A stretch of DNA of 64,000 nucleotides from assembly GCA_040905465.1 (NCBI GenBank), contig JBBDRK010000017.1:79274-143273 (forward strand), in the 5' to 3' direction. The notes beneath the pieces are model-generated. The model searched no databases. It saw nothing but the letters and a program-made list of their open reading frames with translations, and was not told the origin of the DNA. Position 1 is the first letter of the stretch. Each line of letters opens with the position of its first letter. The position numbers and the translations under genes were made by a program. The DNA is from Trueperaceae bacterium (GTDB taxonomy: Bacteria > Deinococcota > Deinococci > Deinococcales > Trueperaceae). Of this stretch, positions 11,491 through 36,561 are shown piece after piece.

Positions 11491-11540
11491 AGAGCGGGTG
11501 CGCGACCAGAGCTACGCTCGCACGCGGAAGGAGTGGTGTC

Positions 11541-13025: not shown

Positions 13026-13041
13026 AGCGCAGGGAACCGAG

Positions 13042-15280: not shown

Positions 15281-15352
15281 GCTCTCGGCGATCTCGACCG
15301 GCAGGTCCTTTCTGTTGTCACCAAGCGAAATCGGCTGAAGGACGACTGCTCC

Positions 15353-15408
15353 ATGAACGTGACTGAATGAACGTGGCTGAGTGAGAGCGGCTGAGTGAGA
15401 GTGGCTGA
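15353..15408 (+). repeat. Four degenerate 14-bp tandem repeats directly upstream of the SDR start
   Basis: ATGAACGTGACTGA / ATGAACGTGGCTGA / GTGAGAGCGGCTGA / GTGAGAGTGGCTGA. Confidence 0.85.
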
Positions 15409-16413: not shown

Positions 16414-16490
16414 CGAACTGGCCCAGCGACACTTGGTGTAATGGACGACAACAAGCAAACTTAGAGGAGCTCCCTGCTCAAGTCCTAGCC

Positions 16491-18074
16491 CTAATCCAGG
16501 TACTCGTAGGCCGGCAGCGTGAGAAAGTCTATGAATTCAGGCTCGAGTACCAACTTGTCGAGGATGGCAGCGGCTTCCCGGTAGCGGCTGTTTTCTTCCC
16601 CGCCTAAGGACTGGAGCTCTTCGGCGCGTACGTCCCAATAGAATTCCGCCGTCATCGTTCGTCCATCATCTAATCGAGTCGCGTTCCGGATCCACTGCCA
16701 GAGTTGGGCTCGGCTGATCTCGGCCGTGGCAGCGTCTTCCATCAGGTTATTGATAGCGGCCGCACCATTGCCGTTCAGCCAGGAGTTGATGTACTGAAGC
16801 GCGACGCTCACATTGTTGCGGACTCCGGTCGCCGTAACAGCACCGTCGGCCACCTCGAAATCCACCAGACGCTCGCCGGCCACCGTCACTTGCTCTCGAA
16901 GCTCATGCTTCTGATTCTGACGGTCTCCCAGTGTCTGGTCGAAAACTTCGCGGGCGACCGCGACCAGGCCAGGGTGCGCTACCCAGGTGCCGTCAAAGCC
17001 CTTGTCGGCTTCGAGCTGCTTGTCTTCGTGGACCTTCTCAAACGCCATTGCATTGACATCTTGATCTGAGCGGCTCGGAATAAAGGCAGCCATACCCCCG
17101 ATCGCGTGTGCGCCCCGCTTATGGCACGCGCGTACAAGCGCATCGGTGTATGAGCTCATGAACGGGATCGACATGGTCACCTGGGCTCGGTCTGGAAGCA
17201 CCAGGTCCTCACGGTTCCGGAACTTCTTGATGATGCTGAAGATATAGTCCCAGCGCCCCGCGTTCAGCCCCGCCGCGTGGTCACGAATCTCGTAGAGTAT
17301 CTCCTCCATCTCGAAGGCGGCAAGAATCGTTTCGATCAACACGGTTGCACGAACAGTGCCTTGGGGAATGCCCAGGTACTCCTGCGCCTTGACGAACACA
17401 TCGTTCCAGAGGCGCGCTTCCAACCGGTTTTCGAGCTTGGGCAGATAGTAGTAAGGGCCGCTTCCCCGTCTGGTCAATACTTCAGCGTTATGGAAGAGAT
17501 AGAGCGCGAAGTCGAATATGCTGGCAGAGACAGGTTCGCCGTCTACGGTGAGATGGCGCTCCGTCAGATGCCACCCTCGCGGTCTAACGACCAATGTGGC
17601 GATGCGATCGTTTAGGGTATATCGTTTTCCACGGGAGGCGTCGTCCAGTGAGATCGTACGGCGTACGGCATCACGCAGGTTTATCTGTCCCTGCAAGATG
17701 TTCTGCCACGTTGGTGCCAGCGAATCTTCGAAGTCCGCCATGAATACGCTGGCGCCAGAATTGAGGGCGTTGATTACCATCTTTCGATCAACCGGACCGG
17801 TTATTTCCACACGCCGGTCCTGCAGGTCACCTGGGGTCGCGGCGACCGACCAAGCTGCGTTGCGAATGTTTTCCGTCTCGTCGGGGTAACTGGGTAGCTC
17901 TCCTCGGTCGAACGCCGCTTGCCGGTCGTTTCGAGCAGCAAGAAGTTCACGTCGCCTCGGCTCGAACTCCTCATGCAGAGCCGCAACGAAGCGGAGGGCG
18001 GGTTCCGAGAGAATCCCGGCGTGGTCGCCGGTGGGAACTGCGATGTGACCGTTGCTCGTGCTGTTTGTTGGCAT
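16491..18074 (-). CDS. aceB: Malate synthase A
   Basis: [58 protein letters not shown]. Start at MPTNS (18074). Confidence 0.97.
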
Positions 18075-18136
18075 CGTGTTACCGCCTTGCGAGTGGAGTT
18101 CCGGCGAGGTCCTGATGGCCGAGTCATCGAGGGTTT

Positions 18137-18158
18137 GTATTCTAGCATGCTGGCATAC
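18137..18158. promoter_or_regulatory. Operator box 1, overlapping an extended -10 of aceB
   Basis: GTATTC-ta-GCATGC-tg-GCATAC; the minus strand contains TGcTAGAAT. Confidence 0.6.
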
Positions 18159-18256
18159 CATAGTGGATGATTGGCCGCCTTCGTCAGCAGTAAATTCCTG
18201 TCCGTTTCCGCATCCCTCACGGGCAATAGTCGTAATCGGCGTTTTCGATCTTCAGA

Positions 18257-18967
18257 TCAGCGGTTGGCGGTCTCGCGAACTAGCGAAGTCAACCGTTCTT
18301 GCTGAACCTCGCGACCCCGGTCCATATGCTCAGCCATTACTTTCGCCGCCACATCGACATTTCCGCCGACTACCGCATTGCGAAGTTGCTGGTGCTCGTC
18401 GAGTGCGGCGGCGTGTCTAGCGGACGGCGAACGTGCCCGATAGCGTTCCATCGCGTCGATGACTTGACTGAGCATGTCCGCGCCCCACCGGTTACCGCTC
18501 AGCTTGTGAATCGCTGAGTGGAATGCCCTACCAAGATCGAGCAGGCGATCGAGGTTGGAGTTCTGCAACGCGTCGCGCATATCCGCCAGAATCTCGTCCA
18601 TGCGTTGGAGGGCTGCAGCTCCGGCTTCCCCGTGCCTTCCGTCGCGAACACTTTGCGCCGCCTTCTTTGTCAACAGGACCTCGAGCGCACTGCGTACGTC
18701 CATCAGTTGTTCGAGTTCGCCGGCCGATAGCGTGGACACTCGCACACCACCCTGAGGCAGTCGTTCTAGAAATCGCTCTCGTTCTAGCCGCTTGAACGCT
18801 TCTCGCAGCGGCGTTCTGCTTACCTGGAGTTCGCGCGCCAGATCTGCCTCGACAAGGCGTTGCCCAGGCCGCAAATCGCCTCGGATTATGGCGGCTGCGA
18901 GTTTCGAGTAGACACCATCGGCAATAGTGGTCGTATGAATCTGACTGTTGTCGGTTAGTTTATACAC
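18257..18967 (-). CDS. GntR family regulator with FCD domain
   Basis: LRPGQRLVEADLARELQVSRTPLREA HTH; FH..I...SGN and EH..L FCD motifs. Confidence 0.93.
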   Translation of the reverse strand: MYKLTDNSQIHTTTIADGVYSKLAAAIIRGDLRPGQRLVEADLARELQVSRTPLREAFKRLERERFLERLPQGGVRVSTLSAGELEQLMDVRSALEVLLTKKAAQSVRDGRHGEAGAAALQRMDEILADMRDALQNSNLDRLLDLGRAFHSAIHKLSGNRWGADMLSQVIDAMERYRARSPSARHAAALDEHQQLRNAVVGGNVDVAAKVMAEHMDRGREVQQERLTSLVRETANR

Positions 18968-19042
18968 GTTGTAATCCCCACTTTACGTCAAGACCAATCG
19001 TCGCATGTTCAGGCGCTGCCGCTGTCGACTAAATCAGGGTTA

Positions 19043-19056
19043 GTATACTCGCATAC
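19043..19056. promoter_or_regulatory. Operator box 2 in the divergent gntR/MFS intergenic region
   Basis: GTATAC-tc-GCATAC, containing a -10-like TATACT. Confidence 0.6.
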
Positions 19057-19128
19057 CGGCGGACAAGCTGCCTGGGTCGACGAGCGGCTGGAGAATGCCG
19101 CCGAGCCTGACTGACGTAACGAGGTTCG

Positions 19129-20433
19129 ATGCGGAAAATGTCAACCAGCTTCCGACTATCTGAGACGGTAGTTCGTTGGCGTGTACCTCTTTCTGCTTGC
19201 GCACTTCAGTTCCTTCAGTCGGTCTTGATCCTTCAGTCGTTCGGAGCCTACGCCGCGGTCTGGAGTGTCGAGTTCGGTTGGAGCAAGACTGCTCTGGCGC
19301 TTGCTTATTCGATGCACCGGGCCGAGGCCGGCCTCTTGGGTCCGGTCCAAGGTTGGTTGATCGCACGCGTCGGCATCCGGACGGTACTGCGTAGCGGGGT
19401 ACTTTTGCTCGGGATCGGTTTCCTACTCCTAAGTCGTGTCGATTCGATACTCGCACTCTTCCTCACGCTGTTCCTGACCGCGATTGGTGGCGGCTTCCTC
19501 GGCCTGCTTTCCCTTTCGAGCGTAATCGTGAGCGAGTTCGAGCGCTCTCGCTCCAAAGCGTTGGCGGTACTACAGTTCGGTATCAGCCTGGGCGGACTTG
19601 CGGTACCGATAATGGCTTGGGCCCTCGTCGCCATCGGTTGGCGACCCGTTGCCGTGATATCGGGACTCCTTGTCCTCACGCTCGGTTTCGCGCTCACCCA
19701 GCTAGTGAGCAGTTTCGCCATCCGGGCTGACAAAGTCCGGGTCAGAGAGGGCGGGGGTGCGGCTGAGCGCGACACCTACACGACTGCCGCTACAGCGAGC
19801 GTCGGTGAGTGGAGCGCGGCAAGTGCCGTTAGGACCAGTGCTTTCTGGCTCGTTGCGCTCGGACATGCTGGATCTGTTGCCGTTGTGGCAGCCGTTAACG
19901 TGCACCTCGTCGTCTTTCTAACTGAGGACATGGGCTACTCGGTACCGTCCGCGGCCATGGTCTTTGCATTGATAACTGCTGCGTCGGTGATGGGACACGT
20001 TTTGGGGGGAATCGCGGGCGACAAGTTCAGCAGGCATCGGGTAGCGGCAGTCGCTACACTGGGCCACTTTGTCGCAATGGTAGTACTGGCGGTAAGCTCC
20101 GGAGCGCTCTTGGTAGTATTGTTCGCCGTGACGCACGGGCTCGCCTGGGGAATTCGGGCACCCCTTATGGGAGCTCTCCGGGCCGACTATTTCGGAGTGA
20201 AGGCATATCCGCTCACCATGGGAGTATCCTCGCTCGTCGTTATGCTGGGCTCACTTGCCGGTCCGCTTGCGGTAGGTACGGCCGCGGACGTTTGGGCTAG
20301 ATTCGATCTCGGCTTCCTGGTGCTTGCCGGGATCGGCTTGTTGAGCGCGCTTGCATTCGCATTGGCAAGGCCGCCGGTGGTTCAAACGATCAAGCCGTCG
20401 AGGGCTTCGGCCGATGGGCTTGCGAGCGGGTAA
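19129..20433 (+). CDS. MFS transporter
   Basis: About 12 hydrophobic segments; GWLIARVGIR motif A-like, GIAGDKFSR, LRADYFG. Confidence 0.9.
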   Translation: MRKMSTSFRLSETVVRWRVPLSACALQFLQSVLILQSFGAYAAVWSVEFGWSKTALALAYSMHRAEAGLLGPVQGWLIARVGIRTVLRSGVLLLGIGFLLLSRVDSILALFLTLFLTAIGGGFLGLLSLSSVIVSEFERSRSKALAVLQFGISLGGLAVPIMAWALVAIGWRPVAVISGLLVLTLGFALTQLVSSFAIRADKVRVREGGGAAERDTYTTAATASVGEWSAASAVRTSAFWLVALGHAGSVAVVAAVNVHLVVFLTEDMGYSVPSAAMVFALITAASVMGHVLGGIAGDKFSRHRVAAVATLGHFVAMVVLAVSSGALLVVLFAVTHGLAWGIRAPLMGALRADYFGVKAYPLTMGVSSLVVMLGSLAGPLAVGTAADVWARFDLGFLVLAGIGLLSALAFALARPPVVQTIKPSRASADGLASG

Positions 20434-20485
20434 TCGTGTTGCGAATCGGGCCCTCGCCCGACTCTAGCTTTGAAGGGACGTCAAC

Positions 20486-21478
20486 ATGAGTAAAGAGTGG
20501 CATGTTGCTTGGTTGGACGTGTGGGACCAACGCGCGCAGGAGGCTGTCCTAGCCGTAGCGCCCCCCAGCCTGAACGTAACCTTTGCCGAAACGTACGAAC
20601 TCGAGGAACAGTTCGAGATCACCGCAAATTGCGATGTGATCGCAGCCGGCTGGCCGGCCGTCACCCGGGAGCTGATAACCAACGCGGCTAGTCTGAAGCT
20701 CATCCACAAGCTCGGCGTCGGATACGACAAGATCGACCTGAACGCGGCCAAGGAGAGCCGATTAGCGGTTGCGATCACGTCCGGAGCCAATGCAAGTGCG
20801 GTCGCCGAGCACACCGTAGGATTGGTACTGGCAGCGCTGCGGCGTACCCCTTACGTGGACAGCTCGTTGCGCTCAGGACGCTGGCTCAAGACAGAGATGC
20901 GAGTCGTCAACCAGCAACTGCGTGGGAAGCGAGTTGGCTTGCTGGGCTTCGGCAACATAGGTCGACAAGTCGCCAGGAAGCTCGCCGGATTCGAGGTGGA
21001 AATCGTCTACTTTGATGTCCGTCGTGCGGATTTAACGGCCGAGACGTCCCTTGGGGCGGGTTACGTCTCGTTCGATGAGCTGCTCGAAACGAGCGATATC
21101 CTCAGTCTGCACGTGCCGCTGGATGAAAGCACAAGAGGTATCCTCGCGGACGAGTCATTTGCCCGCATGAAAGACGGGGCCGTGATCATCAATACGTCGA
21201 GAGGCGGGATCATCGATGAACAGGCCTTGGTGAGATGCCTGAAGTCGGGCAAGATCGAAGCCGCTGGACTCGACACCTTCGCCCAAGAACCGCCCGCCGT
21301 TGCCGATCCGCTTTTCACGTTTCCACAGGTCGTTTTATCGCCGCACATCGCCGGGGCTGTCTTCGACAACGTCCAGAATCTCGGGGCTCACCTTTTCAGG
21401 AATGTGATCTCCTACCTCGAGAATGGCATCCTCCCGGCCGAGGACACGATTCTGCTTGGCGTTCCAGACGAAGGTTAA
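20486..21478 (+). CDS. D-isomer-specific 2-hydroxyacid dehydrogenase
   Basis: GVGYDKID, AVAEH, GLLGFGNIG, INTSRGGIIDE, LDTFAQEP, SPHIAG. Confidence 0.93.
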   Translation: MSKEWHVAWLDVWDQRAQEAVLAVAPPSLNVTFAETYELEEQFEITANCDVIAAGWPAVTRELITNAASLKLIHKLGVGYDKIDLNAAKESRLAVAITSGANASAVAEHTVGLVLAALRRTPYVDSSLRSGRWLKTEMRVVNQQLRGKRVGLLGFGNIGRQVARKLAGFEVEIVYFDVRRADLTAETSLGAGYVSFDELLETSDILSLHVPLDESTRGILADESFARMKDGAVIINTSRGGIIDEQALVRCLKSGKIEAAGLDTFAQEPPAVADPLFTFPQVVLSPHIAGAVFDNVQNLGAHLFRNVISYLENGILPAEDTILLGVPDEG

Positions 21479-21510
21479 TCAGGGTTCACTGCAGTTGACG
21501 AATCGGTGGC

Positions 21511-21554
21511 TTGCACGGGATGGCCCCTTGAGGTATTCTAGTATACAGGCATAC
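21511..21554 (+). promoter_or_regulatory. Sigma70 promoter overlapped by operator box 3
   Basis: TTGCAC (21511-16), 17 bp spacer, TATTCT (21534-39); box GTATTC-ta-GTATAC-ag-GCATAC at 21533-21554. Confidence 0.7.
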
Positions 21555-21820
21555 TTTGAAGATGGTTGGAATCGTTACGACGCCTCCAACCTCGGGTGAA
21601 CCGTTGCGGCCACAACAAGTGGACCCGTAGGCAAGCCGTAATCGCATGCCTGTTGATGCCGGTCTAGAACCGGTAAAGACGCGGGGTTGCGCCATGTGGT
21701 GCGACAGAGTCATACGACGAGGAGGAAAGTGCTGCGGCCAGATCAAACGAAACATGCGAGTTCTCCCCCACCCGAAAGTACCCGTGGTGGGCCCGACCTG
21801 ATTGCATCCAGGAGGCATAC

Positions 21821-23323
21821 ATGACAAGGTTGAGACAAGGCATGACCCGCTGGCTGATGGCGCTGGCACTACTTCTGCTCACGGCCGGCGCCGGCATGGC
21901 GCAGGACCGATTCGACCTCACGGTGGTATTCGGTGAGGAAGCAGATACCCTCGATCCGCACATGACAACCCTGATCGTCCCAGAAACGATTCAGGAAAAT
22001 ATGTTCGATCGCCTCGTCCGTATTTCGAGTACCGGCGAAGTGGTTCCTCACGTGGCGTCTTCCTGGGAGTGGGTGGAGCCCACGAGGCTGCGTCTCGTTT
22101 TGCGTGAGGATGTCTACTTCCACGACGGTACTCAGCTCACCGCCGATGACGTCGCGTACAACTTCGAGCGGGTCGCCAACCCCGACGTAGCATCGCCCAT
22201 AGCGTCCCGGATCCCACAGGTAAGCGAAGTCGAGGTCGTCGATCCTTTTACCGTCGACTTGCTGTTTGCTGAAACCAACGCCGAAGCCCTTACCGCTCTC
22301 GCACGCTTGATGATCGTGCCGCAGCACATCGTAGAAGAGGTGGGGGACGAGGCGTTCGCCCAGATTCCAGTCGGTAGCGGCCCTTTCCGCTTCGTGGAGT
22401 GGCAACGGGGAGTGCATATCCTGCTCGAGGCGAACGACGATTACTGGGGGGGCAGGCCAGAGGTCGACCGTGCCATTTTCAAGAACGTTCCCGAGGCAGC
22501 GACGAGGGTCGCTGAACTCCGTACCGGCCGTGCCGACATCGTGGCAAACATTCCACCCGAATCTGCGACTGACGGTCCCGGATACACGATAAAAACTGCT
22601 CCTAGCACTCGCCGGCTCTTCATCACCATGGACAGTTCCCGCCCTCCATTCGACGATGTACGCGTACGCCAGGCCCTGAACTATGCGATCGATAAAGAGG
22701 CGATCGTGGAGTTTATCCTCGGCGGTCACGCGACGCAAACCAACGGTTATCTCGGCCCGAACTGGGATGTGGAGTACGACAATGACCGGCAGCCGTATCC
22801 ATACGATCCGGAGCGGTCTCGAGAGTTGCTTGCCGAGGCGGGATACGAGAACGGAGCACCATTCGTTTTCACTTACCCGGTCGGCCGTTACCCGAAGGAC
22901 AGTGAGATTGGGGAGACGGTAGGGGCGATGCTCGAAGAGGCCGGGTTCCAGGTGGAGTTGGATCCGAAGGACCCGTCGACGTACGCCACAATGGCCTTCC
23001 GAGAACTCAGCCTCCAGGTCGGACTGTCACAGGGGACCGGATTCCCAACTGCCGAGGTGACGAGGAACGGCTACTGGAATCGTGGAGTGTCGGTGAGGTG
23101 GTTTGACGATGCGCAGCTCCTCGACATGGTCGAAGAAGCGCGCACGATCGTAGACGATGAGGAGCGCCTCGCGTTACTGCGGGAAATCGACGAGTACGTA
23201 TTCGAACAGGCTGTTTTCGGTTTCTTGTTTTCCTACGACGACATATGGGGCGTATCCAACCGGATCGAATGGGCTCCGGACCCTGCAACGCGAACCTACC
23301 TGATGGACGTGTCGATCAGGTAG
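21821..23323 (+). CDS. Family 5 (Opp/Dpp) ABC substrate-binding protein
   Basis: Signal peptide, TLDPH, FHDGTQLTADDV, GSGPFRF, VRQALNYAIDK. AGGAGG RBS. Confidence 0.95.
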   Translation: MTRLRQGMTRWLMALALLLLTAGAGMAQDRFDLTVVFGEEADTLDPHMTTLIVPETIQENMFDRLVRISSTGEVVPHVASSWEWVEPTRLRLVLREDVYFHDGTQLTADDVAYNFERVANPDVASPIASRIPQVSEVEVVDPFTVDLLFAETNAEALTALARLMIVPQHIVEEVGDEAFAQIPVGSGPFRFVEWQRGVHILLEANDDYWGGRPEVDRAIFKNVPEAATRVAELRTGRADIVANIPPESATDGPGYTIKTAPSTRRLFITMDSSRPPFDDVRVRQALNYAIDKEAIVEFILGGHATQTNGYLGPNWDVEYDNDRQPYPYDPERSRELLAEAGYENGAPFVFTYPVGRYPKDSEIGETVGAMLEEAGFQVELDPKDPSTYATMAFRELSLQVGLSQGTGFPTAEVTRNGYWNRGVSVRWFDDAQLLDMVEEARTIVDDEERLALLREIDEYVFEQAVFGFLFSYDDIWGVSNRIEWAPDPATRTYLMDVSIR

Positions 23324-23437
23324 GCAGTTAGCGGCTGCCCCACCGACGACTAACCGGGGGGCCGAACGAATCGAGATGGAGTGGCGCGCCAGCGCTCTCC
23401 ATCTCCTATCCTCTTGTTCAGCGTGGAGGCGCTTTCG

Positions 23438-24361
23438 TTGCGGACATATGTGCTGAAAAGAGTTTTGCAGAGCGCTGGCGTTATAGTTGCGGCGTCGGTT
23501 CTCGCCTTCTCCCTCGTATTCCTTTCGGGCGATCCTGTGGCAGCGGTCGTCCCAGCAGATGCCACTCAGGAGGAGGTCCAGCGGGCGATCATGCTTTACG
23601 GATTCGATCAGCCACTGTACGTACAATACTTCCGATTCCTAGGTGGCGCCGTTCGAGGCGATCTGGGAGATTCGCTCCGCTATCGCGTCTCCACAATGGA
23701 ACTGGTAAGTGAACGTCTCCCAGCCACCGCTCTTCTCGTTGCTGCCGGAATGACGATAACTATCTTGTTGGGACTCAGCCTCGGGATTCTGGCTGCCGTG
23801 AGGAGAGACAGCATCTTCGATCAGATCGCGCTATTCCTAAGCACCTTCGGACAGGCGATGCCCAACTTCTGGTTCGGGATTCTACTGATACTCCTGTTCA
23901 GTGTCACCCTCAATTGGCTCCCGCCGTCCGGCTACGGAGGCCTTCAATATCTGGTCCTGCCCGCGCTGACGATCAGCCTCTACCAGCTGCCAAAGTTCCT
24001 CAGGGTAGTGAGGTCATCGGTTCATGAGGTGCTCAGCGAGGATTACGTTCGTACGGCACGCTCGAAGGGCATTTCGGAGTATGCCGTCTTGGTGCGCCAT
24101 GCACTCAGGAACGCACTCATCCCAATCATCACACTATTCGGATTGGAGCTGGGGGCAATGTTCGGTGGCGCCGTCGTTACCGAAACGGTATTCGCGTGGC
24201 CAGGCCTGGGCAGGTTGCTCATCGAAGCCGTGCGCAGCGCCGACTTCCCACTGGTACAGACCGCCATCCTAGTTATCGCTTTGCTGATTACGACGGTCAA
24301 TCTGATCGTTGACCTCACCTACGTGGCACTCGATCCGAGGGTGCGTCTCGATAATGCTTAG
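23438..24361 (+). CDS. Opp/Dpp ABC permease (DppB-like)
   Basis: SGDPV, EDYVRTARSKG, ETVFAWPGLG. TTG start after GGAGG. Confidence 0.93.
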   Translation: MRTYVLKRVLQSAGVIVAASVLAFSLVFLSGDPVAAVVPADATQEEVQRAIMLYGFDQPLYVQYFRFLGGAVRGDLGDSLRYRVSTMELVSERLPATALLVAAGMTITILLGLSLGILAAVRRDSIFDQIALFLSTFGQAMPNFWFGILLILLFSVTLNWLPPSGYGGLQYLVLPALTISLYQLPKFLRVVRSSVHEVLSEDYVRTARSKGISEYAVLVRHALRNALIPIITLFGLELGAMFGGAVVTETVFAWPGLGRLLIEAVRSADFPLVQTAILVIALLITTVNLIVDLTYVALDPRVRLDNA

Positions 24362-24469
24362 CGACGGAAACCGAATTACTCGCCAAAACCTGGTAAGGAC
24401 CATTGCAAAACGGTTGGACATCGAGCCAAGTACCGCCGTTTCTTGGTTCCGAACACCGGCGGTGGCCGG

Positions 24470-25375: not shown

Positions 25376-25429
25376 TCCGATCAGACACCAAACTTGCACG
25401 ACCGCCGGAGAAGGCAGGGAGAGTAAGCA

Positions 25430-26599: not shown

Positions 26600-26627
26600 A
26601 GAACCGAGAGGCGTTCAGCCAAATTCG

Positions 26628-26641
26628 GTATACTGGCATAC
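26628..26641. promoter_or_regulatory. Operator box 4 / internal promoter upstream of the MaoC-ACAD module
   Basis: GTATAC-tg-GCATAC ending 20 bp before ATG 26661, containing TATACT. Confidence 0.55.
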
Positions 26642-26660
26642 AGAAAGGAAGTCGCGTCGG

Positions 26661-27116
26661 ATGGAACGCAGTGATAATCGCGAGACCGAATTGTTGGGCC
26701 ACGAGGTGCGGACCGGGCAAACTACAGTCTGCAATGAGAGGCTTCAACTCTTCCTGGAGGCTCTCGGGCTTTCTGGCTGGGACCCTTCCGGCCCGGTTCC
26801 AGTGACCTTCGTGCCTCGTTGTTTTCGCGACTGGGTCGATGTCACTCGAGATGTTCGCCCTGGTCCAGTCCTCGATGGTTTCGGACTCGAGAAGGGCGTT
26901 AACGCAGGAATAACGATTTCGGCCAAATTGCCCGTGTTTGTTGGGGACCGACTTCACCTCACGGAGAAGGTGGCCGAGGTTCGAGAGAAAGAAGGCGCCT
27001 CGGGCGCCCTGATCTTCGTGACGGTTCGCCAAACGATCCGCCGCGAGAAAGAGGACATCGGGATCGTCCAGGAGAACGACATGCTTACCGTTTATCGCCG
27101 CGGAGCGGAGAAGTGA
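26661..27116 (+). CDS. MaoC/FAS1-like hotdog-fold dehydratase subunit (non-catalytic type)
   Basis: PVTF, PVFVGDRL, KEGASGALIFVTV motifs; coupled to the next MaoC gene by a GTGA overlap. Confidence 0.75.
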   Translation: MERSDNRETELLGHEVRTGQTTVCNERLQLFLEALGLSGWDPSGPVPVTFVPRCFRDWVDVTRDVRPGPVLDGFGLEKGVNAGITISAKLPVFVGDRLHLTEKVAEVREKEGASGALIFVTVRQTIRREKEDIGIVQENDMLTVYRRGAEK

Positions 27117-27535
27117 AATTGGAATTCACGCTTCCGTGGGGCCCGATAAGTGCCACGCAACTCGCTTTTTACTGCTCGGCAGTGGGAGTTGCCGACCCGA
27201 TTCATTACGACCGCGCGACCGTTGCGGAAGTCGGTATGAAAGACGTTGTGGCAAACGGTTCACTGCGAGTCGCGATGATTGAGGTTGCCATTAGGCGAGC
27301 GTTCGCCAACCACCCGGACCTCTTAATCGAGAAGCTCGAGTGCCGGCATAGGGCCCCGCTATACCGCGGCCAAACCGCAAGAATTCGAGTGGTTTCCGCT
27401 GCCGCCGCCGGCCGAATCGACTGTCAAGTCGAGACGACCGTCGAGGACTCACTCGTGGACTCGGCAACGGCTGAACTGTCCTTGCCCGAAAGCACGCTCA
27501 TCGAGTTATCCGAGAAGGGATTGGTTCGTTCGTGA
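27113..27535 (+). CDS. MaoC family (R)-enoyl-CoA hydratase subunit
   Basis: DPIHYD motif, VVANG, PLYRGQT. Confidence 0.75.
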   Translation: MKLEFTLPWGPISATQLAFYCSAVGVADPIHYDRATVAEVGMKDVVANGSLRVAMIEVAIRRAFANHPDLLIEKLECRHRAPLYRGQTARIRVVSAAAAGRIDCQVETTVEDSLVDSATAELSLPESTLIELSEKGLVRS

Positions 27536-28734
27536 ACTTTCTGTTTGGTGAAGAACACCGGGAATTCAAGGGTCAGGTAGTCGACTTCTTCGAGTCGCAG
27601 CGAGACGAGAGCTGGGGAACGATCGATCGAGAGTCGGATAGCTTCAGGGCTCTGGGCATGGAGATGGACAAGCGGCTCGTCGAGCGGGGCTGGTGGGTGC
27701 TCCATTGGCCCGAGATGTACGGCGGCGGCGGCGGAGACTTCGTCTCGTACGCGATCTTGCGTGAGGCAGAGGGCTACTTCCGGGTTCCAACCGGCGGTGG
27801 CCACGGGCGTTATATCGTCGGCTCGGCCCTGATGAAGTTTGCCAGCGAAGAACTAAAGGACGAGGTACTCCCGCAGATTGCCAAAGCCGAGACCGTGCTT
27901 TCACTGGGCTACACCGAGCCAGAAGCGGGCTCGGACTTGGGCAGCTTGCGGGCAACGGCACTACGGGACGGCGACAACTACATCATCAACGGCACCAAGG
28001 CCTTTATCACATACGGACACTTTGCCGATCAGATCTTCCTTGCTGCTCGCACCGATCCCTCGGCGCCAAAAAAGCATCAGGGAGTGAGCCTCTTCCTGGT
28101 TCCCCTTGACAGCGACGGCGTCGTTATCGAATCGCAGGTCTGCCTTACCGGACACCGAGTTAATCTGATCCACTTCAATGATGTCGCCGTTAACAGCGGC
28201 CGTTTGGTCGGGACCGAGCACCAAGGCTTCTATCATATGGCTGACGCACTGAATTACGAACGCAGTGGAGTGCAGAAGCCTGCGATCTATCGCCGACAGC
28301 TCGAGGCTATCGTCGAGCTGTCCAAGCAGAATGGCACGTTCGGTCAGTCAGCTGAGTCGATTACCGGCCTGCTTACGATGATCGAAGCGTGGAGGATGCT
28401 CTGCTGGCGCGTCGTGCTGCTTCAGGGTAGAGGCGACTCCCCCAGTTGGGAGGCTTCCCAGGCAGAACTCTACCGCAAGCTGGTGAATCCGGAGTTCGGG
28501 CGGCTCATATCGATCGTCTGCGGAAGCGAGTACCTTAGCGATCAGCTTTCGCCGCTGCTGAAGTGGTGGATACGCGAAGGCACCAACAATCACGGTCAAG
28601 GCGGGCGAAACGTAACTATGAATGCGATCGGTCGGCGCGGCCTCAAGTTGCCGCGCGCGGGGAGTTCGGAAGCGGCAGCCAGTAGAAAGAGAGCCGACCA
28701 ATCGACCGAGTATCAGGTACCAACCAACGCTTAA
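27532..28734 (+). CDS. Acyl-CoA dehydrogenase (catalytic subunit, heteromeric type)
   Basis: WPEMYGG, LGYTEPEAGSDL, INGTKAFIT, KHQGVSLFLV, LNYER, C-terminal GLKLPR. Confidence 0.9.
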   Translation: MNFLFGEEHREFKGQVVDFFESQRDESWGTIDRESDSFRALGMEMDKRLVERGWWVLHWPEMYGGGGGDFVSYAILREAEGYFRVPTGGGHGRYIVGSALMKFASEELKDEVLPQIAKAETVLSLGYTEPEAGSDLGSLRATALRDGDNYIINGTKAFITYGHFADQIFLAARTDPSAPKKHQGVSLFLVPLDSDGVVIESQVCLTGHRVNLIHFNDVAVNSGRLVGTEHQGFYHMADALNYERSGVQKPAIYRRQLEAIVELSKQNGTFGQSAESITGLLTMIEAWRMLCWRVVLLQGRGDSPSWEASQAELYRKLVNPEFGRLISIVCGSEYLSDQLSPLLKWWIREGTNNHGQGGRNVTMNAIGRRGLKLPRAGSSEAAASRKRADQSTEYQVPTNA

Positions 28735-28791
28735 CAGTCGACCTATCGCTCATACAGGGCAAGAGGGCACGGATCGAGAGGAGTCATTGAG

Positions 28792-29721
28792 ATGGATCTG
28801 GAACTACCAACGGCGGTAAAGGGATTCGTTAACGATGTCCGAGCGGCGGTGGCTGACCTGGACAGCGCTTCTCCGGCGGAGTTGTGGGCGGCTGCCAACG
28901 AGCAGGGTTGGCTTTCACGCCCCTCTCTCTGGACCGGCACGCTGTTCGAGGCCCTAATTCTCGCCCGTATATTGGGAGAATATGGAATCGAAGCACGTCC
29001 GCTAATCGATCAGGTCGCTTGGAGATGGGCGACTGAGAGCGCGGTTCCGCAAGGAACGGAAGTGAATTATGTGGGCACGTTCCGGATGCCGCTTCCCGAC
29101 GATCAGGTCTACGCTGGCGCAGGATTCGTACACGTCCCGTATCCATCGGAGGGTGTGCTTTCGACGTCTTCGGTTTCGTCCGACGGTGCGTCTCCAAGTC
29201 TCGGCGAATGGGAGCGGCGGAGTGATGCAAGGGTCGCGAGCAGACTGTACTGGCTTCACCGCCTTCTGATATGTTCCCACGCAAATGCGGCTGCTCGGGT
29301 TGCCATCGAGATAGCCACCGAGTACTCCAAGGAGCGAAGGCAGTTCGGGCAGGCGATTGGCACCTTCCAGGGCGTCCAGCACACCTTGGTTCAAGCGTTC
29401 AGCGCCGTTACGTCGTTGGACCTGCTCATCGAACGCGCTACCCAACTGCTGGCCGAAAATGGGCCGGACAGCATAGGAGCGAGAGGACTGCTGGAAATAG
29501 TCGTCATTCGCTCGCAGCGCGTGGCCTGGGACGCAGCCATCGCTTCTCACGATGTTCTGGGTGGCGCCGGTTTCATGCGCAGCCACCCGCTCACTAGCTA
29601 TTCCGAGCTGCTACTTCGCGCTCACGCGATTCTCGGCGAGAGGCACTCCAACTGGGAGGCTTCCGTCGACACTATTGTCGCAATGGATTGGCTCTCGACA
29701 GAGGGGTTGGCACAAGCGTGA
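28792..29721 (+). CDS. Short, divergent acyl-CoA dehydrogenase-like partner subunit
   Basis: Only the C-terminal ACAD motifs are recognisable: YSKERRQFGQAIGTFQGVQH, HDVLGGAGF. 309 aa. Confidence 0.8.
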   Translation: MDLELPTAVKGFVNDVRAAVADLDSASPAELWAAANEQGWLSRPSLWTGTLFEALILARILGEYGIEARPLIDQVAWRWATESAVPQGTEVNYVGTFRMPLPDDQVYAGAGFVHVPYPSEGVLSTSSVSSDGASPSLGEWERRSDARVASRLYWLHRLLICSHANAAARVAIEIATEYSKERRQFGQAIGTFQGVQHTLVQAFSAVTSLDLLIERATQLLAENGPDSIGARGLLEIVVIRSQRVAWDAAIASHDVLGGAGFMRSHPLTSYSELLLRAHAILGERHSNWEASVDTIVAMDWLSTEGLAQA

Positions 29722-30149
29722 CTTCGCGGGTACCAGCGCCTCAACCCACCCAGCTCGCCCAGCCATTCTGGGATGCGCTGCTCGAGCAGCGCATCCTCAT
29801 TCAGCGCTGTAACAGCTGTGGCAATCTCATTCACAATCCCAAGATTCGCTGTCCCAATTGCCATGGTGCCGATCTCGGCTGGGCCAACTGTCCGACCAGC
29901 GGCAGAATCTACTCGTACACCGTGGTTCATCGGCCTCTTAACGACGCCTTCGCGGATAACGTGCCGTACGTGATCGGCTTGGTTGAACTAGACGAGGTAA
30001 AGGTGAGACTGATGACGAACATCGTGAATTGCGACGAGGAGGCACTCGAAATCGGGGAGCGCGTGAACGCGGTATTCCCCAAAGTGGCCGACGACTTCAC
30101 GGTTTTCGCATTCGAGCCAGCAATGAGCGGGGCTTATGACGGGCGGTGA
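29718..30149 (+). CDS. DUF35 Zn-ribbon/OB-fold protein
   Basis: PFW, QRCNSCG..CPNC, GRIYSYTVVH, PYVIGLVEL. GTG overlaps the upstream stop. Confidence 0.92.
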   Translation: MTSRVPAPQPTQLAQPFWDALLEQRILIQRCNSCGNLIHNPKIRCPNCHGADLGWANCPTSGRIYSYTVVHRPLNDAFADNVPYVIGLVELDEVKVRLMTNIVNCDEEALEIGERVNAVFPKVADDFTVFAFEPAMSGAYDGR

Positions 30150-31330
30150 CTGCCTTGAACGGTAAGGGACAGTGGCATGAGGTCAAGCGGCTGCTCGACA
30201 AGACGTTCATCTCGGGTGTCTATACGACCAAACAGGGACGGCGGCTCGAAGAGTCGGCTGATGAACTCCTGGCGGAGTCGCTCTTCGGCGCGATAGCCGA
30301 TGCCGGACTCGAGCCTAGTGAAGTTGATGGACTGGGTGGTTTACGGTCACCGGTCGAAAGCGCTTCACAAGCGTTTGCCGGGAAGTGGGCGGAAATACTG
30401 GGGCATCCGCTACGCTACTACACCACCGTGGATGCGGCCTCTGCGTCACACTGCGCCGTGCTCTTGCACGCCGCCCTGGCGGTAGGAACCGGACTCGCCA
30501 AGCACGTCGTCGTGCTCGGCGGCGGCTCGCGCTCTCGAGGCGACAGGGTCAACGAGATGGCCAGCTGGCACGGGGAGTTCGACACTTCCTGGGGCACTCT
30601 GATACCCAGTTGGTTCGCTTTGATCGCGCAGAGGCACATGTTCCAGTACGGTACGACGGCTGAGCAGTTGGCCGAGGTGGCGGTCAGCACCAGGCGGTGG
30701 GCAAGCATGAATCCCGACGCCATCATGCGCAAGCCGATTACGGTCGATGACGTTATCAGCTCTCGAATGATTTCGAGCCCCTTGCATCTTCTTGACTGCT
30801 GCCTAGTCAACGACGGTGCAGGCGCGGTGGTCATCTCTTCGGCTGCCTCGGGCAGCGCGAACGGCAAGCGTCCAATTAAGATCCTGGGAGGCTCTGAGGA
30901 GTACACCTTTCGCGGCTACACAGATGTCCAACACGACATGCTCGACTCCGGAGCCACGAGAACCGCCAGAACGGCGATGGAGATGGCGGGGGTGTCACAC
31001 GACGACATCGATGTCGCCGAACTGTACGATTGTTTCACCATTACAGTTCTCCGCCTGCTTGAGGACTTCGGTTTCTGCAAGCCGGGCGAATCCGGCGACT
31101 TCGTGAGTGGCGGCCGACTGGGTCCGACGGGTTCACTGCCCACGAACACGCACGGTGGCGGCCTCTCTTTCAGTCACAGTTTCTCGGGCTTGTCACACAC
31201 GATCGAAGCAGTAAGGCAACTTCGCGGTGAGTGCGGACAACGCCAGGTTCCGAATGCCAACATCGCTGTCGCCCACAGCAATGGTGGTCCTCTCGCCCTC
31301 CACAGCACGTTGGTGCTTGGAGCAGGCTGA
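30146..31330 (+). CDS. Thiolase-fold (SCP-x/Ltp2-like) protein lacking the nucleophilic Cys; probable aldolase
   Basis: PLHLLDCC..NDGAGAVV, ELYDCFT, NTHGGGLS, EAVRQLRGE; the usual ACAS position reads AASAS. Confidence 0.85.
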   Translation: MTALNGKGQWHEVKRLLDKTFISGVYTTKQGRRLEESADELLAESLFGAIADAGLEPSEVDGLGGLRSPVESASQAFAGKWAEILGHPLRYYTTVDAASASHCAVLLHAALAVGTGLAKHVVVLGGGSRSRGDRVNEMASWHGEFDTSWGTLIPSWFALIAQRHMFQYGTTAEQLAEVAVSTRRWASMNPDAIMRKPITVDDVISSRMISSPLHLLDCCLVNDGAGAVVISSAASGSANGKRPIKILGGSEEYTFRGYTDVQHDMLDSGATRTARTAMEMAGVSHDDIDVAELYDCFTITVLRLLEDFGFCKPGESGDFVSGGRLGPTGSLPTNTHGGGLSFSHSFSGLSHTIEAVRQLRGECGQRQVPNANIAVAHSNGGPLALHSTLVLGAG

Positions 31331-31399
31331 GGTGAGCTTGGGTGTGACAAGGCGACACGTCTTTAGCGTATATGCGAGACAAGGAAAGGTGGTAAGCAG

Positions 31400-32062
31400 A
31401 TGGAACTGACATTCTGGGGACAGTCCTGCTGGCAGATAAAGATCGACGGAGTAGAGCTTCTCATCGACCCGTGGTTGACCGGAAACCCCCAACTGGGTTA
31501 TATACCCGACGGTTTGAACCCGGACCTGATCTTGGTAACCCACAATCATACCGATCACGTTGGCGACGCCATTCCACTCGCCAAGCGGTTCGATGCAACG
31601 ATAATCGCCACACCATCGCATGCACGGCATTACGAGGCGGAGGGTGCCAAGGCCGAGCGCCTGCACCTCGGCGGGAGAAGGCGGTCCGACTGGGGATCGA
31701 TCAAGGCCGTGCAGGCGTTCCATGATTCACCGCTTTCAATCGGAAACTCGTGGCGAGTAGAGCTGGGTGCCGAGTGTGGCTTCGTCATTGAGGCCGAGGG
31801 CAAGAAGATCTACCACGCCGGTGACACCTGCCTTTTCAGCGACATGAGCCTGTGGGCTCCCGTGGACCTTGCTCTCCTGCCAATGGACGGCCAGATGGTG
31901 ATGGAGGCGGAGGACGCCGTGCGGGCGGCGCAGTTCGTCGAGGCGTCGCTCACGATTCCCATTCACTGGAGGAGCAGCGATCCACATGAGTTCGTGCGGA
32001 TGCTGGAAGCAGCCGGCCTCCGGGGCCAGGTGCCCGAGATCGGCAAGTCGATAAGCCTATGA
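31400..32062 (+). CDS. Metal-dependent hydrolase, MBL fold (UPF0173-like)
   Basis: LIDPWL, THNHTDH, YHAGDT, IPIHW. Confidence 0.9.
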   Translation: MELTFWGQSCWQIKIDGVELLIDPWLTGNPQLGYIPDGLNPDLILVTHNHTDHVGDAIPLAKRFDATIIATPSHARHYEAEGAKAERLHLGGRRRSDWGSIKAVQAFHDSPLSIGNSWRVELGAECGFVIEAEGKKIYHAGDTCLFSDMSLWAPVDLALLPMDGQMVMEAEDAVRAAQFVEASLTIPIHWRSSDPHEFVRMLEAAGLRGQVPEIGKSISL

Positions 32063-32150
32063 AGCCAGTTGTCGAATCACGAGTCGAGCCGGGACGCGCA
32101 TTGCCGCGTGTGGCGCGAACGGACGCGACCGAATGCGCCGGAGGGTAGCC

Positions 32151-32867
32151 TTGAACGTCGGATTTCGTGTCTATACTGAAGTCAGTCGAGCGCGACGCGA
32201 GTTGGTCGAGGCCCTTCAAGATGCTGCTGTTGCCAACATCGCGGACGCGATGCACGGCACGGGAGTCATGGATTCTCGCATCGCACCGCTCTATCCAGGA
32301 ATGAAACGAATCGCTGGTACCGCGATCACTGTCGACGTTACCCCCGGGGACGGAATGATGCTGAGGAAGGCCCTTGACATCGCACAAGATGGGGATGTTC
32401 TCGTGATTAACGCTCACGGTTGCCGTGAACGAGCTGTTCTGGGGGGAAACGTTTGTATTGCCGTAAAGCGAAAAAAGCTGGGCGGGATCATCGTAGACGG
32501 GGTAGTGCGCGACGTGGAGGAAGCCCGCAACCTGGATGTGGCGGTGATGGCCTGCGGAGTAAACGCGCGCTCTGGCACCACGAATAGTGGCTGGGGGGAA
32601 GTAAACGTCCCAATCGCGTGCGGCGGCTCGGTCGTGAATCCGGGAGATATCGTCATCGGCGACTTAGAGGGAGTCGTTGTCGTGAACAAGTTGTTTGCAG
32701 GCGATGTTCTCGAGTCGCTGCGGCGAGTCGAGGAGAAAAGAGGCCGCCCGGACGAGCTCTCTCAACGCTTTGAAAAGAGCGTGTCACAACAAAGCTACGG
32801 TCTCACCGCCGTTAACGAAGAGCTGGTTTCGCGTGGTGCCAGCATAATCGATGGTGCTGTCGCGTAG
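32151..32867 (+). CDS. RraA / HMG-CHA aldolase family protein
   Basis: NIADAM, IAGTAITV, GDVLVI, DGVVRD, VNPGDIVIGDLEGVVV. TTG start after GGAGGG. Confidence 0.9.
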   Translation: MNVGFRVYTEVSRARRELVEALQDAAVANIADAMHGTGVMDSRIAPLYPGMKRIAGTAITVDVTPGDGMMLRKALDIAQDGDVLVINAHGCRERAVLGGNVCIAVKRKKLGGIIVDGVVRDVEEARNLDVAVMACGVNARSGTTNSGWGEVNVPIACGGSVVNPGDIVIGDLEGVVVVNKLFAGDVLESLRRVEEKRGRPDELSQRFEKSVSQQSYGLTAVNEELVSRGASIIDGAVA

Positions 32868-32951
32868 TTAGCCCTTGTCGCTGATTGCCGCCCATTGCGG
32901 GGTCGTGTGCCGAGTCAACTGAATGCAAGTGTCTTATGGAGACTCGACCGG

Positions 32952-33812
32952 GTGGGCGAGCCTGCGCGGAGGAGAGTTACGGAAGAAGCGAGAACAATTC
33001 GGGTTGAATTGGGTTATCTCAACCGGTTTGGGCAGTCCCGATCCGTAAATGCGTACTTCGTGCGCTACGGGACTGAGGCGGTGATCATTGACACCGGAAA
33101 TGGTACCTACGAGCATCACTCCCGAATACTGGAGGAGTGGACGAATTTGGGTCAACCTCGTGTGCGCTTCATCCTGCTTACACACGGACATTCAGACCAT
33201 AGCGGAGGCGCTCGTAAGCTGGCCGAAGTGTTCGAGGCACCTGTCGCAATTCACCGCCTGGACAAGCCTCTTCTCACCAACGCGGTTCCTCTGGTACCCG
33301 ACGATCTTCGGACGATCGATTCGCAGTTGAATCTCGGTGCGGCTCCGATCACTCCACTTCATACTCCGGGCCACACGAACGGGCACGTGTGCTTCCTCCT
33401 CACTGGTGAAGCTACCCTCTTTTCAGGCGACACCGTTCCCGCAGTCGCGTCTACTTTGATTGGACGGACTCACGGAAACATGGCAGCTTATCTGGAATCC
33501 CTCCGGTCACTGCTAAAGATACAGTTCGGGACCGTCGCTCCGGGGCACGGAAAAATGGTCGACGACGGCTGGCGGCGAACGCTTGATGTCCTCGAGGTAC
33601 GGCTGAGGCGCGAAGGTGAAATAGTTGCTCTGCTGCGAGTCTCTCCCCGTACGGCGGAGGACATTATTGGAGTGTTTTACGGCGCATCTGCCAGTTCTGC
33701 TACTCGGACGATGGGGCTGACCATGGTCGAAAGCCACCTACGGCACCTTGAGTCGAATGGCAGAGTTTCAATGACTGATGGGCGTTGGCATCTTGGCCGC
33801 AAGTCTTTGTAG
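32952..33812 (+). CDS. MBL-fold metallo-hydrolase with C-terminal winged helix
   Basis: IIDTG, THGHSDHSGG, HTPGHT, FSGDT, PGHG. Start uncertain (32895-32952). Confidence 0.85.
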   Translation: MGEPARRRVTEEARTIRVELGYLNRFGQSRSVNAYFVRYGTEAVIIDTGNGTYEHHSRILEEWTNLGQPRVRFILLTHGHSDHSGGARKLAEVFEAPVAIHRLDKPLLTNAVPLVPDDLRTIDSQLNLGAAPITPLHTPGHTNGHVCFLLTGEATLFSGDTVPAVASTLIGRTHGNMAAYLESLRSLLKIQFGTVAPGHGKMVDDGWRRTLDVLEVRLRREGEIVALLRVSPRTAEDIIGVFYGASASSATRTMGLTMVESHLRHLESNGRVSMTDGRWHLGRKSL

Positions 33813-33944
33813 ACGAGGTCCGGTTCGACGAGTACGGTTGTCGAGACCGCCGATAGAGGGATTCACCGACGCAATCGTCCGCCGGCATAGCAGGTAGTGG
33901 ATATCACCGCGGGATAATTTCGAGACCTTCCTGACGAGGACTCC

Positions 33945-36501: not shown

Positions 36502-36561
36502 GAGCCGAGTGTACACGGCGAACCCGCGGACGAGCCAATCCACCGAGGCAACACCAGCTCC

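Follow-up and report, generated by a model that had tools for sequence, protein, structure and literature searches.

The window analysed here is a 64,000-nt stretch of contig JBBDRK010000017.1 from a Trueperaceae bacterium found in sediment, whose genome is 3.53 Mb in size and 95% complete. This work concerns a cluster of 17 contiguous genes at positions 16491-33812 that appears to encode the regulated uptake and CoA-dependent degradation of an organic acid. All 17 open reading frames (ORFs) carry the domains that an original prediction, made from the sequence letters, had listed for them, as confirmed by Pfam and NCBIfam; one correction applies to the last three genes, which lie in the order metallo-beta-lactamase (MBL)-fold hydrolase, RraA-like protein, MBL-fold hydrolase. 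The genes are as follows:

16491-18074, minus strand: malate synthase A, aceB (TIGR01344); the ORF extends to 18161
18257-18967, minus strand: GntR regulator with an FCD ligand domain (PF00392, 62.7 bits; PF07729, 70.5 bits)
19129-20433, plus strand: major facilitator superfamily (MFS) transporter (PF07690), weakly like lactate, oxalate/formate and monocarboxylate carriers
20486-21478, plus strand: D-isomer-specific 2-hydroxyacid dehydrogenase (2HADH; PF02826, PF00389)
21821-23323, plus strand: family-5 periplasmic solute-binding protein with a signal peptide (PF00496, SBP_bac_5)
23381-24361, plus strand: ATP-binding cassette (ABC) permease 1 (PF00528)
24443-25375, plus strand: ABC permease 2 (PF00528)
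25430-26599, plus strand: family-III CoA-transferase (CoAT3; PF02515)
26661-27116, plus strand: hot-dog protein MaoC_N (PF13452)
27113-27535, plus strand: hot-dog protein MaoC_C (PF01575)
27532-28734, plus strand: acyl-CoA dehydrogenase (ACAD) large subunit, ACAD_L (Pfam ACAD domains)
28792-29721, plus strand: ACAD small subunit, ACAD_S (C-terminal ACAD domain only)
29688-30149, plus strand: stand-alone DUF35 protein, zinc ribbon plus OB fold (PF12172, PF01796)
30146-31330, plus strand: putative thiolase-fold aldolase of the Sal/SLP type (PF22691)
31400-32062, plus strand: MBL1, UPF0173-type MBL-fold hydrolase, candidate lactonase (NF001911, 193 bits against a cut-off of 144)
32133-32867, plus strand: RraA-like protein with the class II pyruvate aldolase/oxaloacetate decarboxylase fold (PF03737)
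32895-33812, plus strand: MBL2, MBL-fold hydrolase like glyoxalase II and LACTB2 (PF00753; nearest structure 4ad9)

The regulator has an N-terminal GntR helix-turn-helix and a C-terminal FCD domain, the two features that define FCD-type GntR proteins, and it scored under the cut-off of every named NCBIfam regulator model. The NCBIfam matches of the MFS transporter were likewise all far under cut-off. Among solved structures, 2HADH is nearest to 1wwk (phosphoglycerate dehydrogenase) and 3wnv (glyoxylate reductase) and resembles the glyoxylate/hydroxypyruvate reductases; the binding protein (nearest structures 5u4o, agrocinopine binder AccA) and MBL1 (TM_1162 and Igni_1254) were placed in the same way.

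A 16-nt box, TAGYATRC-NN-GCATAC (TAGYATRCNNGCATAC), is shared by four non-coding gaps of the cluster, with exact copies at 18143, 19041 and 21539 and a copy with two mismatches at 26626. Of these gaps, one lies before aceB, one between the divergent gntR and MFS genes, one before the binding-protein gene and one before the first hot-dog gene. The predicted operator boxes are:

18143-18158: box 1 (TAGCATGCTGGCATAC), ~70 nt upstream of the likely aceB start
19041-19056: box 2 (TAGTATACTCGCATAC), between the divergently transcribed gntR and MFS genes, 73-74 nt away from each start codon
21539-21554: box 3 (TAGTATACAGGCATAC), 267 nt upstream of the binding-protein gene
26626-26641: box 4 (CGGTATACTGGCATAC), 20 nt upstream of MaoC_N

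With up to two mismatches allowed, the window contains seven box matches (palindromic re-hits on the other strand counted), compared with a mean of 0.44 in shuffled sequences; none of 100 shuffles reached seven. Across the 3.53-Mb genome there are three exact copies, where base composition predicts 0.03. For the 14-nt core (GYATRCNNGCATAC) the count is four against an expectation of 1.0, and all four copies lie in the cluster's non-coding gaps on the same strand. Other genomic sites with one or two mismatches number nine, below the chance expectation of ~31. The claim in the original prediction that one box is common to all four promoter regions is thus borne out by three exact copies and one near-exact copy, whose core is found nowhere in the genome but in these gaps. 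The partial palindromy of the box and its overlap with -10-like hexamers (TATACT, TATACA, and TAGAAT) fit a repressor operator. The box may resemble the published operator consensus sequences of FadR/FCD regulators. A promoter and terminator scan gave nothing above its shuffles, and Rfam gave no match at 16000-34500. The 342-nt gap before the binding-protein gene (21479-21820) forms an unusually long leader, also with no Rfam match.

We concluded from these sequence patterns that the cluster is a real regulon, predicted to be under one FCD-type GntR repressor. The predicted operator would stand once before each of four transcription units: aceB alone; the divergent gntR and MFS-2HADH genes; the run from the binding protein through the two permeases to the CoA-transferase; and the run from MaoC_N through MBL2. 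The shared box also supports the co-regulation of aceB with the CoA module that had been suggested for this locus.

The aceB product scored 762.5 bits against TIGR01344 (cut-off 594.5) and belongs to the malate synthase A equivalog. Because the TIGR01344 alignment begins at residue 50 of the 556-aa ORF and an in-frame ATG at 18074 has AAGGCGG upstream of it, the real start is probably 18074, not 18161, and the protein 527 aa in length; box 1 would then lie upstream of the gene and not inside it. The genome has no other malate synthase gene, and no TIGR01346 match for isocitrate lyase (ICL) was found in the 95%-complete genome, so that the aceA plus aceB pair of the glyoxylate shunt is not present, as the original prediction had it for the locus. 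Among 40 relatives, aceB was found at 57-67% identity in 21 and an over-cut-off ICL in 12; in four of the relatives (G018, G023, G024, and G030) ICL lies directly downstream of aceB at a distance of 30-110 nt, a pairing that is missing in the window's genome. The best aceB match in 5.8 billion proteins (73%) is on a JGI contig of 28,604 nt, and the best aldolase (89%) and RraA (75%) matches come from contigs of the same size and source. In favor of a genuine link between aceB and the pathway are the exact operator before aceB and the contig size of 28,604 nt that these best matches share.

Next, we examined the putative cleavage enzyme. The protein has a thiolase fold (PF22691, 172.6 bits, plus PF00108), and in the PDB it matched 4u4e (an uncharacterised "thiolase") at 262 bits, 9myr (CtSal) at 190, 6ok1 (Ltp2) at 166, and the BbsB thiolase at 133. 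In pairwise alignments Ala98 faces the nucleophilic Cys of the BbsB S-A-C-S-A-G stretch, Y294-D295-C296-F297 faces the YDCY of Sal (9myr), and the residue opposite both Gln352 of Sal and Tyr344 of Ltp2 is His344. Across 28 aligned orthologues, which share 51-89% identity with the window protein, A98, Y294, D295, N334, and H344 are invariant, and C296 and F297 show at least 90% conservation. With Ala98 in place of the nucleophilic Cys, the acyl-enzyme needed by a thiolase cannot form. In the CtSal study, Tyr302 and Cys304 of the YDCY motif are essential for retro-aldol cleavage, since Y302F and C304A/S abolish activity, and HDCF is given as the mark of SCP2 thiolases and YDCF as that of the thiolase-like SLPs (PMC12329534). 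The residue pattern of the window protein fits a thiolase-fold retro-aldolase of the Sal/SLP type. It had been described as a Cys-less thiolase, which is right for the nucleophilic Cys (Ala98) but not for the protein as a whole, as Cys296 of the Y-D-C-F motif is retained.

The DUF35 gene adjoins the aldolase gene with a 4-nt overlap at the aldolase start, as would be expected of a DUF35 partner. Its 153-aa product has a canonical C4 zinc ribbon (C-x2-C-x10-C-x2-C) and is the only DUF35 protein in the genome. Such a partner also occurs in BbsAB, and it could be cited, together with the thiolase fold and with Asn334, His344, and Cys296 as kept equivalents of thiolase catalytic residues, in favor of ordinary thiolytic beta-oxidation by a true thiolase or an acyltransferase like BbsB or PhlC. 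This explanation is, in our view, extremely improbable: all 28 orthologues have Ala where a thiolase has its acyl-accepting Cys, Tyr stands in place of the His of the SCP2-thiolase HDCF motif, and neither Pfam nor NCBIfam found a 3-hydroxyacyl-CoA dehydrogenase in the cluster.

ACAD_L contains all three ACAD domains and has 6wy8_B and 4x28_A, subunits of two-chain ACADs, as its nearest structures, and ACAD_S gave weak matches to the NCBIfam IpdE2 model and to 6wy8_A. We take 6wy8 to be IpdE1-IpdE2 and 4x28 to be ChsE4-ChsE5, both heteromeric steroid ACADs. Adjacent genes for a large and a degenerate small subunit are a feature of such steroid-type enzymes, and an alpha2beta2 state is predicted for the pair in the window.

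The core can be compared with two steroid side-chain modules. The igr-type module (6OK1, 4X28, 6WY8) likewise has a contiguous two-subunit ACAD, two-subunit MaoC, DUF35, and thiolase-fold aldolase; its genes are presumably ChsE1-ChsE2, ChsH1-ChsH2, and Ltp2, plus IpdE1-IpdE2. It differs in the YDHF motif of Ltp2, which is YDCF here, and in the use of an acyl-CoA synthetase where the window has a family-III CoA-transferase and no steroid ring genes. The Shy-Sal system of Comamonas testosteroni (9MYR) also uses a thiolase-fold aldolase without the nucleophilic Cys and with a Tyr-Asp-Cys motif (YDCY in Sal, YDCF here), which is docked on a DUF35 zinc ribbon and acts after a MaoC hydratase; for the window protein the docking is predicted. 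Unlike the Shy-Sal system, in which a C3H1 ribbon is fused to Shy, the window has a separate 153-aa DUF35 protein with a C4 ribbon, a two-subunit hydratase, His344 at the position of Sal Gln352, and a non-steroid context, and the match to Sal reaches only 190 bits. We concluded that the core may work like the igr/Ltp2 and Shy-Sal modules, with the Sal/SLP aldolase features that were tested all present, and that it differs from them in its stand-alone DUF35, the CoA-transferase in place of a ligase, the non-canonical hydratase motif, and the polar-acid context.

These likenesses raise the question of whether the cluster removes steroid, bile-acid or isoprenoid side chains, in the igr or Shy-Sal style, without ring degradation. 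Four core components are nearest to steroid side-chain or ring relatives (9myr, 6ok1, 6wy8, 4x28, and the IpdE2 model), and the literature found on such modules deals with steroids, estrogens or aromatic compounds. However, the genome has no KshA_C domain, in line with the original statement that steroid ring-degradation genes are absent, and it has a single DUF35. The CoA-transferase belongs with those for small dicarboxylates; co-regulated with the core are an ABC/MFS pair for hydrophilic solutes, RraA, 2HADH, and malate synthase; and related loci carry TctC tricarboxylate-type receptors, MmgE/PrpD proteins, and lactonases. The genomic context thus argues against a steroid-CoA as the substrate of the predicted retro-aldol activity, and we regard a steroid role as very unlikely.

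The best NCBIfam models for CoAT3 are the succinate-glutarate and succinyl-CoA:mesaconate transferases, both under cut-off (230 bits against a cut-off of 700 for the latter), and the solved structures closest to it are 10uh (annotated by its depositors as formyl-CoA transferase), SUGCT (9br6), 4ed9 (CaiB/BaiF family), and YfdE. Its likeness to SUGCT and the mesaconate transferases points to a dicarboxylic acid as substrate and succinyl-CoA as donor. The same logic of CoA-transferase, ACAD, hot-dog hydratase, and C-C cleavage of a 3-hydroxyacyl-CoA is described, with a branched dicarboxylate as substrate, for the itaconate/methylsuccinate cluster of Pseudomonas and Cupriavidus (Ict, Mcd, Ich, Ccl, and MmgE), which also has MmgE/PrpD and lactonase as accessory functions, as do two of the metagenome loci described below, L096 and L098 (PMC12290011). 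That cluster uses a citramalyl-CoA lyase where the window has the thiolase-fold aldolase and DUF35, and its ACAD and hydratase are single proteins. We take its lyase to be of the CitE/HpcH type and Ict to belong to family III. The gene cluster lacks the combination of citramalyl-CoA lyase and single-chain itaconyl-CoA hydratase that would mark it as a member of the itaconate/methylsuccinate group, and none of its 17 cluster genes matches a lyase-type Pfam family.

Benzylsuccinate beta-oxidation (BbsEF, BbsG, BbsH, BbsCD, and BbsAB) resembles the cluster in its family-III CoA-transferase for a 2-substituted succinate, its ACAD, and its pair of DUF35 and thiolase-fold proteins, and weak NCBIfam matches to BbsA and BbsB as well as structure matches to 7pxp and 9fn0 were found. 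The Bbs pathway oxidises an alcohol and makes a thiolytic cut with Cys, whereas the cluster has neither the dehydrogenase nor the nucleophile. The proposed route also parallels the segment of the ethylmalonyl-CoA pathway and methylaspartate cycle formed by mesaconyl-CoA hydratase, beta-methylmalyl-CoA lyase, and malate synthase, with another lyase family and with glyoxylate as a putative product here. In the ethylmalonyl-CoA pathway, a C5-dicarboxylate CoA ester is hydrated and cleaved to glyoxylate and propionyl-CoA, with malate synthase downstream (PMC12290011). By analogy, the logic of the cluster resembles that of the itaconate/methylsuccinate and benzylsuccinate pathways, with a different cleavage enzyme. 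No published description of this gene set was found in the literature searched (supplementary files excluded).

To see how widely the core occurs, metagenomes were scanned with the aldolase alignment, which gave 27 loci. Four of them (L094, L095, L096, and L098) carry MaoC_C, ACAD_L, ACAD_S, DUF35, aldolase, and CoAT3 in the same order, and a fifth (L099) has the core run, cut inside ACAD_L; identity in the five loci is 59-64%. A tblastn search showed MaoC_N in L098, and Pfam (PF13452) showed it in L094 and L096. By these matches, a seven-gene core of the MaoC pair, the ACAD pair, DUF35, aldolase, and CoAT3 appears to recur in five of the 27 loci. The nearest named homologues of the aldolase are from Pigmentiphaga and Verticiella (61-63%), followed by an alphaproteobacterial metagenome-assembled genome (58%); no orthologue was found in 40 genomes of the same order, where the best match was 34% identical. 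Genome contigs scanned with the CoA-transferase as single query yielded 80 loci, none above 45% identity, and the cluster is in none of them. A sample of 400 genomes from one class (apparently Gammaproteobacteria) gave paralogues only (up to 350 bits), and the 508 plasmid records with a match were all below 60% identity. In 19 paralogous regions of 11-20 kb that were fetched, the common part is DUF35 plus a thiolase-like gene (34-51% identity), to which some regions add a distant ACAD, CoA-transferase or MBL. MBL2-like genes (29-34%) lie 1.6-7 kb from the paralogous DUF35/thiolase-like pair in four of the 19 regions (L152, L154, L157, and L160, in genomes G331, G068, G416, and G264, respectively), a proximity that may be due to chance.

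The neighbours of the core in the longer metagenome loci add to the picture. L096 has a convergent operon of TctC, SMP-30 lactonase, RraA-like protein, MmgE/PrpD, and 2HADH, plus a LysR gene, and L098 has TctC, an FCD-GntR, SMP-30 lactonase, and MmgE/PrpD. Among the three long loci, the window included, a lactone hydrolase is found in 3/3, RraA in 2/3, and 2HADH in 2/3, the proteins being non-orthologous. The SMP-30 lactonases look like non-orthologous replacements of the MBLs, and this recurrence at the level of families supports the MBLs as lactonases; the recurrence of the accessory genes likewise links the CoA core to a lactone/2-oxo-acid branch. One MmgE/PrpD protein of the itaconate/methylsuccinate cluster is a methylsuccinate isomerase (PMC12290011), and the MmgE/PrpD genes beside the core in L096 and L098 point to substituted succinates.

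The accessory genes could also be read as a pathway of their own, in which RraA and not the CoA module would make glyoxylate: an MBL would open a 2-hydroxy-gamma-lactone acid, 2HADH would oxidise C2, and RraA would split the 4-hydroxy-2-oxo acid into pyruvate and either glyoxylate or a different carbonyl acid, while the CoA module would dispose of the second fragment. In L096, one operon next to the core again has a lactonase, RraA, and 2HADH, and, judged by matching contig sizes (28604, 25240, 11388, 28075, and 18377 nt), RraA matches and aldolase orthologues appear to share five contigs. RraA is nearest in structure to the CHA aldolase 3noj (108 bits), and the phosphoglycerate dehydrogenases and glyoxylate reductases are the nearest relatives of 2HADH. 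On the other side, RraA stays under every curated NCBIfam aldolase cut-off, including the HMG/CHA aldolase (LigK/GalC type) equivalogs NF006731 (139 versus 179) and TIGR02798 (125 versus 304); the MBLs have no proven lactonase relatives, MBL1 being UPF0173-type and MBL2 LACTB2/glyoxalase II-like; and the order of steps cannot be read from sequence. We therefore consider such a two-branch lactone pathway possible but rather unlikely.

Our preferred interpretation, which we hold to be probable on balance, is that the regulon serves the uptake and CoA-dependent, non-thiolytic (retro-aldol) degradation of an organic acid, whose identity is probably that of a substituted di- or tricarboxylate or its lactone. 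Four sequence observations underlie the proposal: the gene content, the operator box, the pattern of catalytic residues in the aldolase, and the missing 3-hydroxyacyl-CoA dehydrogenase. The acid would enter by the family-5 ABC system or the MFS carrier, and, if it comes as a lactone, one or both MBLs may open the ring. The family-III, dicarboxylate-type CoA-transferase would make the CoA ester, probably from succinyl-CoA; the two-subunit ACAD would introduce a 2,3 double bond; and the two-subunit hot-dog hydratase would add water. The thiolase-fold aldolase, docked on the stand-alone DUF35, would then make a retro-aldol cut between C2 and C3 to give an acyl-CoA and a carbonyl compound, and the carbonyl and 2-oxo products would pass to the RraA-type aldolase, 2HADH, and malate synthase A. 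The enzymes fit the series of activation, dehydrogenation, hydration, and retro-aldol cleavage put forward in the original prediction, whereas the glyoxylate that it named as product is one that we, too, only infer.

Retro-aldol cleavage of a 3-hydroxyacyl-CoA yields glyoxylate only if C3 bears a carboxyl group, as in compounds of the malyl-CoA, beta-methylmalyl-CoA, and isocitryl-CoA types, so that the parent acid would be a 2-substituted succinate. The substrate may accordingly be a 2-substituted succinate- or malate-type di- or tricarboxylate or its gamma-lactone, with the MBLs as putative lactonases, and glyoxylate may be released either when an intermediate of the 2-alkylmalyl-CoA type is cut or when RraA acts on a 4-hydroxy-2-oxo acid. 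A more specific version, which we advance tentatively and consider doubtful, is that the DUF35-docked aldolase carries out an isocitrate-lyase-like or beta-alkylmalyl-CoA-lyase-like cleavage of a CoA ester to glyoxylate and an acyl-CoA. Methylsuccinate, tricarballylate, an alkylsuccinate or a ring-opened paraconate-type lactone would be activated with succinyl-CoA as donor, desaturated, hydrated, and split; the acyl-CoA product could be succinyl-CoA itself, which would close a CoA cycle, and malate synthase would assimilate the glyoxylate.

Several observations weigh against the retro-aldol proposal or parts of it. Of the two uptake systems that had been assigned to the cluster, the MFS carrier, the binding protein, and two permeases are in place but an ATPase in cis is not: the cluster has no ABC importer ATPase gene, and eight oligo_HPY matches lie elsewhere in the genome. 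The nearest structures of ACAD_L may indicate a bulky substrate instead of one that is small and polar. MaoC_C lacks the canonical Asp-x4-His dyad of MaoC hydratases (PMC11321319), with Val26 at the position of the Asp and with Asp28 and His31 present, and it scored 26.3 bits against PF01575 (cut-off 27). The motif G-V-x-D-P-I-H-Y-D is kept in all five orthologues (window, L094, L095, L096, and L098); with the canonical Asp missing, hydratase activity is not certain, and we consider it likely that the MaoC pair acts as a hydratase. The 2HADH of L096 (37% identical) and its RraA, which fell below the tblastn filter (E 1e-8, at least 40% of the query), are distant relatives of the window proteins.

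The remaining points against it concern aceB. Among the same-family genomes that bear aceB, five of eight have no over-cut-off ICL match, and as aceB without ICL is common in the family, that argument for a catabolic source of glyoxylate is weak by itself. The seven aceB loci fetched from relatives have neither a GntR gene nor the box, and no aceB lies beside the core in the longer metagenome loci L096 (17.5 kb) and L098 (10.9 kb). The co-location of aceB, aldolase, and RraA is deduced from equal contig size and source. These points, together with the finding that aceB belongs to the type native to the lineage (57-67% identity in 21 out of 40 relatives), favor the explanation that aceB shares the repressor and stands outside the pathway chemistry, having been recruited for a general purpose such as acetyl-CoA overflow or unrelated glyoxylate; the CoA module would then turn, for instance, a hydroxylated or beta-branched acid into acetyl- or propionyl-CoA and a ketone or aldehyde. 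We consider this unlikely, because an exact box precedes aceB and the pattern occurs nowhere else in the genome beyond the cluster, the closest aceB homologue seems to share its 28.6-kb contig with the closest aldolase and RraA, and a glyoxylate-reductase-like 2HADH is under the same control.

With regard to the genomic setting, an independently built Logan contig of 49,792 nt covers positions 15001-35000 unbroken, at an even depth of 43.6 and with two differing letters, which argues against an assembly chimera; the run behind it is probably the source sample, and the contig is not independent biological support. A second sequencing run (X2) gave short low-depth pieces only. The G+C content is 0.58-0.60 over 16-34 kb versus 0.62-0.66 in the adjoining 12-16 kb and 34-42 kb. 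The window contains no tRNA, no direct or inverted repeats that flank the cluster as a mark of a mobile island, and no integrase among the flanking ORFs scanned against Pfam (no search was aimed at integrases). Two same-genus genomes (G001 and G002) have almost nothing in common with either flank, so that insertion borders cannot be set. The term accessory cluster is justified, whereas the label of a mobile island finds no support in the window.

Outside the cluster, a second family-5 ABC system upstream (3465-5001 on the minus strand; 7047-7160 and 7239-8216 on the plus strand) appears to have decayed: two overlapping ORFs (3465-4355 and 3925-5001) divide its binding-protein gene into the C- and N-terminal halves of PF00496, and the one intact ATPase gene is preceded by nothing more than a 55-aa open frame that holds the end of an oligo_HPY domain. 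In the region 8102-14616, a TctC/TctB/TctA tripartite tricarboxylate transporter (~8600-11490) is followed by two sulfatase genes (11541-13025 and 12844-14616); the box is absent from both sets of genes, and neither is common to the two same-genus genomes. Downstream, at 36378-39060 on the minus strand, a BTAD ORF (37693-39060) and an NB-ARC/AAA plus TPR ORF (36378-38243) overlap by ~550 nt on the same strand and would jointly form one SARP/AfsR-like regulator; a frameshift or a mis-called start is likely.

The module of ACAD, MaoC, DUF35, and thiolase-fold aldolase has so far been studied for the removal of steroid and bile-acid side chains, and the literature found otherwise includes anaerobic phenanthrene degradation. 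Here it occurs in a genome without a KshA-type domain, under one predicted operator with a dicarboxylate-type CoA-transferase, RraA, 2HADH, putative lactonases, and the sole malate synthase. If our interpretation is true, the substrate range of Sal/Ltp2-type aldolases would extend to small polar acids, and a function would be assigned to a conserved seven-gene module of uncultured bacteria. The four-operator regulon offers a simple handle on the inducer, since the substrate could come to light through a single repressor and a single binding protein. Should the glyoxylate version also hold, steroid-type enzymes would act on small polar acids with no need of a CitE/HpcH-type lyase, a previously undescribed route by which ICL-less organisms may make and use glyoxylate.

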